This document shows, piece by piece, positions 59,489 to 61,751 of a stretch of DNA of 64,000 nt. Under the pieces are notes generated by a model. The model did not search any database and was not told the DNA's origin. It worked only from the letters and a program-made list of their open reading frames with translations. The stretch's first letter is position 1. Every line of letters begins with the position of its first letter. This DNA comes from an uncultured delta proteobacterium. GTDB taxonomy: Bacteria; Desulfobacterota; Binatia; UBA9968. The stretch lies in assembly GCA_963816145.1 (NCBI GenBank), contig CAWFJP010000017.1, positions 192,001 to 256,000 on the forward strand, written 5' to 3'. The position numbers and the translations under genes are program-made.

Positions 59489-61540
59489 TTGAGTGACGAA
59501 AGAAAAGACCTGAACGAGAAAATCAGGTGGCTACTCCTTCTTCGGGTAGTGATCCTTAGTTTTTTTCTGGGAGCTACGGCTCTCGTCCATTTCTTCCAAG
59601 CGGAATGGGACATTAGGTATCTCATCAGTCTCTCTTTACCGCTGATTCTCGCGTACGCGATTTCGATCGGTTCAGCACTGCTCTTGCCGCGGTTGAAGCA
59701 TCTCCGAGCATTTGCCCATGGGCAGGTAGCTTTGGACGTACTCCTGATCACAGGGATTATCTGGATCACCGGCGATAGCTCTAGCCCGTTTTCTTTTCTT
59801 TACAATCTCGCGGTTATCAACGCAGCGATTTTACTGTTTTATCAAGGCGCGTTAATCGCCGCTGGCATTTCAAGCGTGTGTTACGCAGCGCTTCTTTTGT
59901 GGTCGCATCACTTGCTGCAAAATGGCACCAGTATTCCACTATCGTGGACTGCATTGGTGACGATGGTGATCAACGTCGGCAGTTTCTTCGTAATTGCTGC
60001 GCTGAGTGGATATCTCACGGACAAACTGGGCAAAACGCAGAAGCTGCTACAAGAAAAACAGATAGATTTTCAGGAGCTCGATGCGTTCAAGGAAGCGCTC
60101 TTGCAAGGCATCGGTAGCGGCGTAGCTATCACCGATAGTCAGGGGCGAATCAACTATTTTAATCAGCAAGCGCAGAATTTAACCTCGCTTGGCGAGGCGG
60201 ATGTGATTGGAAAACGGCTCGACCAAATCTTCCCTGGATTACAATTCGATTTCCAGCGTGGCGGCCGTAGCGGTGCCGTCTTCAACGAAGAGCTTCCGTT
60301 ACCTGGTTTACAAGGAGTCCCAAAACAAGTGCGTTTGACGCTGGCCCCGCTCAGTGATTCTGACGAACAGCTTCTCGGGTATGTTTCTATTTTCGAGGAC
60401 ATCACAAAACAAAAACAGATCGAAGAAAAAGTTCGGATCGAGGAAGAACTGCGCAGATCGCGGGAAGTCGAATTACAGGTACCTTCCATTGGATTTGACG
60501 ACGTGCCTTTTCGCTTCGAAGGAGTCGTGGGTAAAAGCGGCGGCATGGAAAAGATTTGCCAGCTCATTCAAAAAGTTGCGGTGAGCAGCACTAACGTTTT
60601 GATCTCTGGTGAAAGCGGGACGGGTAAGGAGCTGGTTGCGAGAGCGGTTCACTTAAACGGGCCTCGGCAAAACAAACCCTTCGTGGGAGTCAATTGCGGT
60701 GCCATCCCGGAAACGCTGATCGAGAGTGAATTATTTGGCCATGTGCGAGGGGCCTTTACCGGTGCGGTGGCGGATCACAGTGGGTTATTCAAACAAGCCG
60801 ACCAGGGAACCATATTTCTCGACGAAGTGGGCGAATTGCCGCTGCATCTCCAAGTAAAACTCTTGCGCATTTTGCAAGAGAAAACCTTCACGCCGGTCGG
60901 CGCCAGTAAACCTGTTAAGGTCGATGTGCGCGTGATTTCTGCGACCAACCGGGATTTGCGAAAGGAATTGGAAGAAGGCAGATTTCGCGAGGATCTTTTT
61001 TATCGGCTAAATGTAGTCAACATGGTCTTACCGCCACTGCGCAGCCGGAAAGAAGATATTCCTTCCCTCGCCCACTATTTTTTACGGAAATTTGCGGCTT
61101 CCCTCAACAAGAATGTCGAAGAAATCTCCAGCGGTGCCCTTATGCAGCTGATGAATCACACTTATCCGGGAAACGTCCGGGAGTTGGAAAACATCATTGA
61201 GCATGCAGTGGCGATAACCAACAAAAATATCGTCACGGAAGAAGATCTGCCGCAGCAACTGAGAGGTAAGACGATCATCAACGATAGCAATGTATTCGAG
61301 CAAACCGCGCCTGGCGGTGCCGAGGTATTCTTTGACAAGGGACTCTCTCTGGATGTGGAGCTAGAGACTCACGAGAAATGCATTTTGCTGGGAGCTCTCA
61401 AGCGCGCCAACGGAGTCCAGAAGAAGGCGGCGGAAATGCTAGGTATCAATTACCGGTCGCTGCGTCACCGCTTGGAAAAATACGACCTTCTAGGAGCAAA
61501 AAATCATTCTTTTTCTGAACAAACGAATAATACCGAGTAA
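59489..61540 (+). CDS. PilS-N/PilR-C fusion: membrane sensor + PAS + sigma54 AAA+ + HTH activator
   Basis: About five to six TM segments with PilS-like [23 protein letters not shown] ([16 protein letters not shown]...FEDIT); then directly [39 protein letters not shown] and [19 protein letters not shown]. No HisKA, HATPase or REC domain. Confidence 0.9.
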
Positions 61541-61734
61541 CAAATTTTGTCACACCACCAATGTCCGCATTCCGTAAACTTGAATCTCATCCCTAACCAG
61601 AGCGCCTCTCATCGTTCAATTCAATCACAGACAGAACTTCTAACCTGTTGGAATTATGTGATTTCACTCAATTGTGACCGGAGTATTGACGAGATTCTTC
61701 CAACTTCAGACCATCATTTTAATTCAGCCATTGT

Positions 61735-61751
61735 TTGGCCTTTCAATTGCT
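61735..61751 (+). promoter_or_regulatory. Sigma54 promoter of the pilin gene
   Basis: TTGGCCTTTCAATTGCT has GG-N10-GC spacing, about 150 bp upstream of pilA. The palindrome GTAACAAATTTTGTCAC (61537-61553) is a candidate activator site. Confidence 0.75.

Follow-up and report, generated by a model that had tools for sequence, protein, structure and literature searches.

A membrane-anchored fusion of PilS and PilR halves that probably turns on the pilin gene of an uncultured soil bacterium without phosphorylation

Introduction

The closest described relative of the regulator considered here is the PilS-PilR pair of Pseudomonas aeruginosa, which also occurs in Geobacter and Myxococcus. At the classical loci compared in this study (e.g., L075), the gene order is pilC-pilS-pilR-pilA. 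According to passages on the sensor in PMC6058289, the six membrane segments of PilS allow a direct interaction with PilA, and a section of PMC11960060 describes how, when pilins build up in the inner membrane, they contact PilS and PilR activation falls.

The 64-kb stretch of DNA analyzed here, referred to as the window, contains a protein that resembles this pair in several ways. It has a 6TM_PilS plus PAS sensor with the same conserved polar residues, a PilR-type AAA+/HTH output, a location beside pilC and the pilin gene, and a sigma-54 pilin promoter with a palindromic upstream site that is also seen at classical loci. In contrast to PilS-PilR, it is a single polypeptide whose activator is integral to the membrane, and it possesses no H-box, ATP-binding kinase domain or receiver, and thus no kinase/phosphatase switch.

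Partial likenesses to other regulators are also evident. NifA, DmpR/XylR and PrdR (with PAS, GAF or V4R sensors) similarly join a sensor to AAA+ and HTH domains and operate without phosphorylation, although they are cytoplasmic, whereas the fusion carries a six-helix membrane domain. PrdR gives the best NCBIfam score, over residues 183–666, at 379.7 bits and far below the cut-off of 795. Activators of the NtrC1/DctD type, in which a dimer and linker helix at the N-terminus keep the protein inactive, likewise have a dimerizing module ahead of AAA+, and by analogy the most plausible way to control the fusion is to prevent its ring from assembling. Unlike NtrC1 (1ny5), where the matches begin at residue 135 and thus past its linker helix, the fusion has a PilS-derived helix followed by a flexible stretch.

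ToxR, TcpP and CadC combine a membrane anchor and DNA binding in one chain, as does the fusion, such that target DNA must reach the membrane. These proteins cross the membrane with a single helix, carry a winged-helix domain at the N-terminus, act at sigma-70 promoters and use no ATP. The fusion, on the other hand, has six hydrophobic segments rather than the single membrane helix of ToxR and CadC, and a C-terminal HTH_8 domain in place of their N-terminal OmpR-type winged helix; with its C-terminal AAA+ motor, it would be expected to act over ~190 bp and as a higher oligomer. Finally, a portion of PMC9239133 describes the PspF-PspA system, in which a sigma-54 activator lacking a receiver is governed by the inner-membrane state; there, PspF is soluble and inhibited by a separate protein, while the fusion covalently joins sensor and activator.

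No paper on a fusion of a PilS sensor to a sigma-54 activator was found in the open-access literature, in keeping with the view of a preliminary description of this locus that the architecture is uncharacterized.

Gene, Locus and Domain Architecture

In the list of open reading frames, the regulator is encoded by one unbroken frame between pilC and the pilin gene (Table 1). A single 683-aa ORF in the pilS-pilR slot had been proposed in the preliminary description, and ORF, Pfam and synteny data all bear this out. Its 3′ limit of 61751 was too far downstream, as the gene stops at 61540 and the longer interval also spans the enhancer and promoter. The TTG start is backed by the 6TM_PilS model, which aligns from residue 4, and by the lengths of homologues (679–720 aa, mostly 679–686).

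Table 1. Features of the pilin locus, in window coordinates.
Feature	Position	Strand	Basis or remark
pilB (type IV pilus assembly ATPase, 575 aa)	56390..58117	+	T2SSE 477 bits; MshEN domain
pilC (platform protein, 408 aa)	58209..59435	+	Two T2SSF stretches, 218 bits
Fused PilS-PilR regulator (683 aa, TTG start)	59489..61540	+	ORF; five-domain architecture
6TM_PilS membrane sensor bundle, residues 4–186	59498..60046	+	PF25323, 54.6 bits (cut-off 27)
Cytoplasmic PAS domain, residues 200–309	60086..60415	+	PAS_9, PAS and PAS_4 matches
Signalling helix, residues 306–329	60404..60475	+	Helix in model; equivalent of the PAS-to-H-box helix of kinase PilS
Junction with variable linker, residues 330–346	60476..60526	+	Low model confidence; unconserved
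Sigma-54 AAA+ domain with GAFTGA, plus lid, residues 347–595	60527..61273	+	PF00158, PF25601
Fis-type HTH_8 DNA-binding domain, residues 625–665	61361..61483	+	PF02954, 43 bits
Palindromic enhancer candidate GTAACA-N5-TGTCAC	61537..61553	+	Overlaps TAA stop codon of the fusion
Conserved element TAACCTGTTGGAAT, halfway from enhancer to promoter	61641..61654	+	Partly conserved in 23-locus alignment
Sigma-54 -24/-12 element TGGCCT-N5-TTGCT	61736..61751	+	Conserved across loci
Conserved AGGAGGTG block in pilin leader	61796..61803	+	23-locus alignment
Type IVa prepilin gene	61899..62278	+	N_methyl motif
Polytopic membrane protein without known family	62311..63998	+	Two overlapping ORFs here, running past the window end; no Pfam match

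The order pilB-pilC-fusion-pilin is kept in all 18 orthologous loci, and a homologue of the membrane protein at 62311..63998 lies 3′ of the pilin gene in 16 of the 18. Two distant loci (L050 and L056) have the fusion in the equivalent slot of a pilB-pilT-pilC-fusion-pilin arrangement. The genome from which the window derives has one PF25323 match, i.e., no second 6TM_PilS protein, and a single Sigma54_DBD match, which represents rpoN. Among the 33 sigma-54 activator ORFs of this genome, the fusion protein is the sole member with a polytopic N-terminus.

Six hydrophobic segments make up the membrane bundle, and helices are predicted in this region of the structure model at residues 2–37, 42–68, 72–94, 100–143 and 153–207, with the PAS beta strands following at residues 211–304. 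The output half is well matched by Sigma54_activat (residues 347–512; 241 bits versus a cut-off of 20.2) and AAA_lid_14 (PF25601; residues 518–595; 90 bits), and sequence matches in the PDB to NifA, FleQ, ZraR and NtrC1 begin at fusion residues 340–346. GESGTGKE, FLDEVGEL and GAFTGA, which we take to be the Walker A stretch, the Walker B stretch and the GAFTGA loop, respectively, are all intact in the translation.

An absence of H-box, HATPase and receiver had been claimed on inspection, and Pfam indeed finds no HisKA, HATPase_c or Response_reg domain in the fusion protein at E ≤ 0.01. Neither HisKA nor HATPase_c is found in nine of nine fused representatives, while both are present in three kinase-length controls (P0150, P0151 and P0160). 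Residues 1–345 are accounted for by the membrane bundle, PAS domain and helix, and include no receiver with a phospho-accepting aspartate. With both the kinase core and the receiver gone, no phosphotransfer is possible.

Ancestry of the Two Halves

The sensor half is of PilS type. At six positions (R19, Q79, D83, T94, G95 and S99), one residue predominates in ≥90% of the 10 fused and of the 101 kinase sequences alike, and T306, E312 and L321 are also common to both forms, so that sensor homology reaches approximately residue 321. From residue 322 onward, where kinases have A/G/A and fused proteins do not, the two diverge just before the H-box position. For the output half, a tree of AAA+/HTH sequences grouped 14 fused proteins with 15 PilS-adjacent PilR proteins (SH-aLRT 98 for the clade), and the 32 other sigma-54 activators of the window genome all fell outside it. 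Together with the occupied pilS-pilR slot, these results uphold the earlier proposal that PilS and PilR have collapsed into one protein. The fusion has at least two origins in both the sensor-half and the output-half trees.

Classical-type loci vary as well. Of the 30 that were inspected, 11 have PilS beside pilC and no adjacent PilR. In five such PilR-less pilC-pilS loci, the next gene encodes a class II tRNA synthetase (three loci), a methylmalonyl-CoA mutase fragment or a receiver-domain protein.

Enhancer, Promoter and Leader

Both a sigma-54 promoter and a palindromic candidate enhancer had been predicted from inspection of the sequence, and comparison across loci found each of them to be real and conserved. 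The palindrome, in the form GTRACA-N5-TGTYAC, has one match in the 64-kb window versus 0.01 expected. As GTGACA-N5-TGTCAC with ≤2 mismatches, it is present in 16 of 21 fused loci and in 3 of 5 classical pilS-pilR loci; the other 5 fused loci lack it at this tolerance.

The -24/-12 element occurs in 23 of 23 orthologous intergenic regions, 163–207 nt past the stop codon and with variable spacer bases. The copy in the window differs from the textbook consensus at two positions, and at ≤2 mismatches the consensus is not enriched in the window (26 matches versus 31.7 expected). As such, a window scan is indistinguishable from chance, and the promoter carries weight because of its conservation across loci.

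Two further blocks are conserved in this region. An identical copy of the 14-mer TAACCTGTTGGAAT is present in classical locus L067, and the element is a possible site for a bending protein, for which IHF would be a candidate. In the pilin leader, the core G+GGTG of AGGAGGTG is invariant in the 23-locus alignment, and the block also occurs in L050, L056, L063 and L072. An Rfam search of the leader (61500–61950) returned no family at gathering score. A match to a CRISPR repeat in the leader scored 21.3 bits versus a threshold of 36 and was treated as chance.

Proposed Mechanism and the Nature of the Signal

The best explanation of the locus as a whole is a one-component, integral-membrane sigma-54 activator, formed from PilS and PilR halves and controlled by pilin, to which we assign a probability slightly above one half (roughly 0.55). 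Its sensor part comprises the six-helix membrane bundle, the PAS domain and the helix that leads to the H-box in kinases, and is joined through ~15–20 variable residues to the PilR-type AAA+ ATPase, with its GAFTGA motif, and the Fis-type HTH. The protein would bind the palindrome over its own stop codon, ~190 bp upstream of the -24/-12 promoter, assemble an AAA+ ring and open the sigma-54 holoenzyme at the pilin gene. On the model of PilS, unassembled pilin in the inner membrane would be what the bundle reads, with plentiful pilin keeping the activator off and depleted pilin turning it on.

The pilin gene itself is relevant to this proposal in two respects. First, the N-terminal helix of the pilin is invariant across orthologues, including Glu at mature position 5 and Pro22, two residues that are important for PilS. 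Second, three-frame translation indicates that the prepilin ORF of the window ends at 62198 (99 aa), with the remaining C-terminal blocks found in two other frames; orthologues are 127–134 aa, aside from one of 101 aa and one of 144 aa. Unless these 3′ frameshifts are consensus errors, the circuit may be impaired in this particular genome. A complex prediction for the membrane domain (residues 1–200, with a 47-row alignment) and the pilin helix (residues 12–66) gave a score of 0.00 in two runs made without controls, a result that weighs on neither side of the question of binding. Pilin is put forward as the signal by extension from the Pseudomonas PilS model.

Alternatively, the same protein could act on the same target while its sensor reads something other than pilin, e.g., the state of the membrane, or a ligand or redox change at the PAS domain, in which case piliation would be under environmental control in place of autoregulation by pilin. 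The PAS domain is kept in every fused and kinase form examined, and we know of no established ligand for the PAS domain of PilS-type sensors. Moreover, pilin contact is carried over to the fusion by analogy, and the wiring of the family is flexible, given the number of classical-type loci where PilS adjoins pilC with no PilR alongside. Against these points, the polar residues of the bundle, common to kinase PilS, are the best-conserved part of the sensor; the fusion gene always adjoins a pilin gene whose product has an invariant N-terminal helix; and intramembrane sensing of pilin is reported for kinase PilS in passages of PMC6058289 and PMC11960060. A non-pilin signal is therefore considered unlikely, albeit the strongest competitor of control by pilin.

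Membrane Anchoring and Control of the Output Domain

How a signal might pass from sensor to motor depends on the join between them. The preliminary description placed a short linker at 60400–60520 (residues 305–345). The first part of this interval is in fact the helix at residues 306–329, while the remainder is a low-confidence stretch. In the model, pLDDT falls below 50 at residues 328–338, and residues 328–350 are of low confidence and non-helical. The 47-sequence alignment shows neither a linker consensus nor a cleavage motif. A join of ~15–20 poorly conserved, low-confidence residues between PAS and AAA+ argues against rigid helical coupling and suggests control by oligomeric state or clustering. 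Based on the model, then, a direct allosteric path from the signalling helix to AAA+ is not evident, and cleavage within the join is conceivable. The favored mechanism would work by clustering of the membrane part, or by its oligomeric state, and not by way of a rigid helix.

A stricter version of the pilin-controlled mechanism holds that the activator functions without leaving the inner membrane, that pilin in the bilayer sets closure of the AAA+ ring through the PilS-type bundle without phosphorylation, that the promoter visits the membrane each time it fires, and that this design was reached independently several times from adjacent pilS and pilR genes. This version is offered tentatively, and taken as a whole is somewhat more likely to fail than to hold. 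Weighing on both versions, sigma-54 activators act as hexamers, whereas a dimer is the expected form of a PilS-type sensor. No characterized precedent was found for a ring of six such six-helix membrane proteins on DNA.

That difficulty would be avoided if the membrane part were an inhibitory anchor, from which a soluble PAS-AAA+-HTH or AAA+-HTH fragment is freed by proteolysis in the linker, or made separately from an internal start. The low-confidence, non-helical and unconserved character of residues 328–350, which are under looser constraint, agrees with such a release. However, the linker has no conserved cleavage motif, and comparison of orthologous loci identified no conserved protease gene. 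Release could also not be undone, unlike control of the PilS type, which is reversible, and the occurrence of more than one origin with joins in one region makes it seem that the join itself is what matters. Lastly, membrane-bound DNA-binding regulators do work, with ToxR and CadC as functioning examples. Release is accordingly judged improbable, and more so than a non-pilin signal.

Recurrence and Selection

The fused regulator is not confined to one assembly, which had been raised as a potential concern. Two cluster searches were made, with 240 clusters listed and an overlap of three. The same Pfam set is present in 120 of 120 listed homologue clusters, and a profile search with distant fused forms yielded 120 of 120 listed clusters that are likewise fused. 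Intact frames were found in 22 relatives. The junction, for which support from independent reads had been sought, is bridged in three DNA runs, each from a different study, by contigs that cross the gene without indels (59719–62113, 59320–62113 and 59490–61956).

The fusion gene is under purifying selection. Estimates of dN/dS with unsaturated dS (computable in 18 of 36 cells) are 0.05–0.15 for the membrane module and 0.05–0.06 for AAA+/HTH. For residues 306–345, values are 0.13–0.64 compared to 0.05–0.15 elsewhere.

Soil and wetland metagenomes are rich in the fused family. For example, at least half of the sampled words of the stretch were recovered in 14 metagenome runs, and at least part of them in 20 runs from 18 studies. 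Contigs from one metatranscriptome, a library that may hold DNA, make up the RNA evidence, which is weak. In a scan of named genomes with an alignment of distant fused forms, none of 80 loci among the matches listed was fused, with generic AAA+ patterns dominating the result; no cultured carrier emerged from these matches, an outcome that does not speak for absence. Seven loci in named genomes that seemed long or PilS-like resolved into a classical pilS gene and a classical pilR gene side by side. Five genomes of the same genus are without the fusion; four have only a PilC-like match of 36–39% identity and one has none. Organism labels of the relatives are source names and some are doubtful, e.g., ‘Chloroflexota’ for a protein 72% identical to that of the window.

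The notion that a misjoin or recent deletion wrecked pilS-pilR and left a non-functional ORF, for which the frameshifts of the neighboring pilin gene and next gene in this assembly might speak, is already refuted as far as computation goes, and is almost certainly wrong, in view of the indel-free contigs of three other runs, the architecture shared by all listed clusters and the relatives with intact frames, the intact catalytic motifs, dN/dS well below 1 in both halves, and the age of the sensor clade, whose members share 31–35% identity.

Implications

How PilS turns contact with pilin in the membrane into an output in the cytoplasm is poorly understood, and every assay is made harder by the kinase/phosphatase step. 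The fusion would constitute a natural read-out of the PilS sensor signal with one protein and one promoter. If the membrane-embedded version of the mechanism is true, it would offer a minimal setting, provided by nature, in which to study the reading of pilin by PilS. For sigma-54 activators more generally, it poses the question of whether AAA+ subunits tethered by six helices can form a ring and remodel RNA polymerase, and of what regulates their assembly.

The uncultured soil bacterium examined here probably turns on its pilin gene from the membrane, without phosphorylation. Since the phosphorelay has been lost repeatedly and independently, the relay is dispensable for the pilin circuit, and a dispensable relay is relevant to the question of why there are two-component systems in the first place.

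Architecture of the Fused Regulator

The regulator is encoded between pilC and the prepilin gene, and the sensor, AAA+ and helix-turn-helix modules occupy one reading frame (see the table). A Pfam search of the ORF found no HisKA, HATPase_c or receiver domain. No NCBIfam equivalog reached its cut-off, with PrdR ranking highest at 379.7 bits versus the required 795, and base composition along the gene showed no G+C break. Given this domain set, the ORF layout and the unbroken G+C, the structure given in the preliminary description (a single ORF in the pilS-pilR slot, its domains, and the missing HisKA, HATPase_c and receiver) is correct in all points.

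Features of the pilus locus (window coordinates) and Pfam domains of the fusion (residues)
Feature	Location	Remark
pilB	56390-58117	upstream of pilC
pilC	58209-59435	upstream of the fusion ORF
Fusion ORF	59489-61540 (+)	683 aa, TTG start
Prepilin gene	start 61899	downstream of the fusion
6TM_PilS	residues 4-186	Pfam
PAS	residues 200-309	Pfam
Sigma54_activat	residues 347-512	Pfam
AAA_lid_14	residues 518-595	Pfam
HTH_8	residues 625-665	Pfam

Assembly Support and Recurrence

An artefactual join, or one peculiar to this assembly, is contradicted by two kinds of evidence. Single contigs from three DNA runs of separate studies, one of which may be the source sample of the window, span the fusion without indels when aligned on 59300-62300: X1 (59719-62113, 10 differences), X2 (59320-62113, 18 differences) and X4 (59490-61956, 17 differences). 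The architecture also recurs. A full-length protein search returned at least 120 homologue clusters of 679-720 aa and 72-100% identity, with an identical Pfam set in all 120 listed, and with residues 1-335 as the query PF25323 and PF00158 were both found in 120 of the 120 clusters listed (three truncated). Among 60 related genomes, the orthologue is intact in 22 (20 if the unpublished genomes G005 and G035 are set aside), cut by a contig end in three, disrupted in two, and absent from all 19 family f3 genomes. Of the disrupted copies, that of genome G041 (locus L027) is left as two pieces and, in addition, a short N-terminal match with one TAA in its frame; that of G027 (L028) is broken in three, each part in a different frame.

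Ancestry of the Sensor and Activator Halves

Residues 1-345 were searched exhaustively against 1.84 billion protein representatives; 23,799 proteins matched at E ≤ 0.001, and 108 of them reached E ≤ 1e-30. Among the best 150 of the 23,799, an H-box expression matched 117, the AAA+/HTH half also matched nine full-length proteins and one fragment, and 23 had neither. The five-domain architecture was present in all nine fused representatives, and HisKA with HATPase_c in all three ordinary-length kinase controls (Pfam). In a further representative, P0242 (751 aa), the kinase core is replaced and 6TM_PilS and PAS are joined to a beta-lactamase-family domain and DUF3471, which is either a chimeric contig or a case of this sensor with an alternative output.

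For each half a tree was built by quick search; SH-aLRT is the only branch support, and the roots are arbitrary. The sensor tree has 113 rows, 38 of the 150 sequences having been left out as fragments, giants or partial matches. One clade (SH-aLRT 99) holds eight of ten fused sequences, including that of the window, and the other two (P0161 and P0182) are placed among kinases; the fused or kinase state requires a minimum of three changes, and well-supported branches force at least two. The AAA+/HTH tree has 61 rows: 14 fused proteins, 15 PilS-adjacent PilRs and, from the window's genome, 32 other activators. All fused proteins and PilS-adjacent PilRs form one clade (98), with all 32 other activators outside it; within the clade, nine fused proteins make up a main clade (98) and the other five are mixed with PilRs. 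The two trees agree: neighboring pilS and pilR genes fused at least twice, with loss of the phosphorelay. The window's fusion lineage is judged on sequence divergence to be old, since sensor identity between its members and the window protein is only 31-35%. In genome G000, activator ORFs of 776, 701 and 531 aa on contigs C30, C20 and C19 have near-identical AAA+ modules (branches of 0.008-0.017), which suggests a recently repeated element.

The Join Between Sensor and Activator

Fused and kinase sensors share residues R19, Q79, D83, T94, G95, S99, F101, Y105, G120, A125 and Y132 in the membrane region and G211, N225, G297 and D304 in the PAS region, and column comparison adds T306, E312 and L321. 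Kinases show A..G...A, the pattern ahead of their H-box, from residue 322 on; the fused proteins lack it. Matches to PDB sequences start at residues 340-346, with NtrC1 (1ny5) aligning from its residue 135, and no solved chain matched residues 1-300.

An AlphaFold model (mean pLDDT 78, pTM 0.45) has membrane helices, a helical extension of the last membrane segment that reaches residue 207, a PAS fold and a helix at 306-329, followed by a non-helical stretch. At 328-338, pLDDT falls below 50 and a 47-sequence alignment gives no consensus. Estimates of dN/dS, taken from the 18 of 36 cells with unsaturated dS, were 0.05-0.15 for the membrane module, 0.06-0.12 for PAS, 0.05-0.06 for AAA+/HTH and 0.13-0.64 for residues 306-345. 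Since the join is flexible, a rigid helical relay from sensor to AAA+ domain is unlikely.

Genomic Context and Distribution

The order pilB-pilC-fusion-pilin is kept in all 18 orthologous loci compared, and in 16 of these a polytopic membrane protein gene follows the pilin. In the window this last gene (62311-63998), for which no Pfam family was matched, consists of two ORFs that overlap (62311-62799 and 62787-63998). Outside the window's class but within its GTDB phylum, four loci have a 669-679-aa fusion after pilC, two of them (L050 and L056) in the order pilB-pilT-pilC-fusion-pilin. The classical locus L075 of the same phylum reads pilB-pilT-pilC-pilS-pilR-pilA, and other classical loci there have pilR and pilS in either order. 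Both types coexist in genome G043, which has a fusion-pilin locus at L024 and a classical pilS-pilR-pilin-pilin arrangement at L055. A kinase-type pilS follows pilC with no adjacent sigma-54 activator at loci L053, L058, L059, L065, L068-L071, L073, L077 and L079; the next gene encodes a class II tRNA synthetase in three of five such loci checked.

The window's genome (marker-gene completeness 99.5%) has one rpoN, a single 6TM_PilS match, which is the fusion gene, and 33 sigma-54 activator ORFs, of which the fusion alone has a polytopic N-terminus. In four of five same-genus genomes without the fusion, the sole PilC-like match is 36-39% identical; in the fifth (G007, 98% complete), there is none. 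The regulator thus seems to be gained or lost together with its pilus cluster.

The Pilin Promoter and Pilin

A TGG(C/T)-N8-TTGC element with variable spacer bases lies 163-207 nt past the stop codon in all 23 orthologous intergenic regions (22 of 22 without L020, from the unpublished genome G035). Their alignment also reveals a partly conserved TAACCTGTTGAA block, an invariant TTTGT core right after the stop codon, and AGGAGGTGA roughly 45 nt downstream of the -12 element (61796-61803 in the window), which occurs at both fused and classical loci (e.g., L050, L056, L063 and L072). AGGAGGTGA is a near-perfect Shine-Dalgarno-like block in the pilin leader, far upstream of the real ribosome-binding site. 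At L050 the block is followed by an in-frame upstream ATG, from which a longer prepilin would be made; the window has no such start.

Comparison with other loci showed that the TTTGT block belongs to a palindrome, of which it forms the right half; the left half overlaps with the stop codon, and the center lies ~190 bp upstream of the -24 element. The 64-kb window has a single match to GTRACA-N5-TGTYAC (61537-61553) against 0.01 expected, and when the upstream region of the window was shuffled 2000 times, only one shuffle came within one mismatch of the palindrome. With up to two mismatches to GTGACA-N5-TGTCAC, it is found in 16 of 21 fused and three of five classical loci, being perfect in L055 and L067. 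Its occurrence at both fused and classical PilR loci fits the PilR-type HTH of the fusion.

The pilin N-terminal helix, including mature Glu5 and Pro22, is invariant in 19 aligned pilins. The window's pilin ORF stops at 99 aa, compared with 127-134 aa in 16 of 18 orthologous pilins, and the missing C-terminal blocks, including a Cys-bounded loop, are present downstream in two other frames (62170-62278). After 62113, in the hypervariable part of the pilin, contigs of all three aligned DNA runs and of the aligned RNA run depart from the window at the same base and share one alternative sequence. The 3′ part may reflect either real decay to a pseudogene or indel consensus errors in a strain-variable stretch.

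One soil metatranscriptome run gave a 226-nt contig on 61261-61486 without differences and a 521-nt contig with 314 nt on 61800-62113 (three differences). As such libraries can contain DNA and the contigs give no transcript ends, this is only a hint that the fusion-pilin region is transcribed in soil.

Proposed Mechanism and Significance

According to PMC6058289, the six membrane segments of Pseudomonas aeruginosa PilS allow direct interaction with PilA and thereby autoregulation; PMC11960060 states that pilins building up in the inner membrane contact PilS and lower PilR activation, and that a phosphatase-motif change, N323A, locks the PilS-PilR system on. Compared with that PilS, the fusion retains the sensor and its conserved intramembrane polar residues but lacks kinase and phosphatase. 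Any pilin signal would therefore have to act directly on activator assembly. The favored inference is control of oligomeric state, in which the sensor dimer, or its pilin-bound form, would stop the AAA+ domains from closing the ring.

The statement that this architecture had not been characterized agrees with the open-access literature, in which no description of a PilS-PilR fusion or a membrane-integral sigma-54 activator was found. Passages of PMC4641369 and PMC9239133 on such activators mention neither; the one that surveys Desulfovibrio vulgaris names GAF and PAS as the most frequent sensors in that organism's one-component activators. While the signal and the mode of action at the membrane are proposals, the architecture, ancestry and target of the fusion are well supported, and it is a real, conserved and apparently so far uncharacterized variant of the PilS-PilR system.
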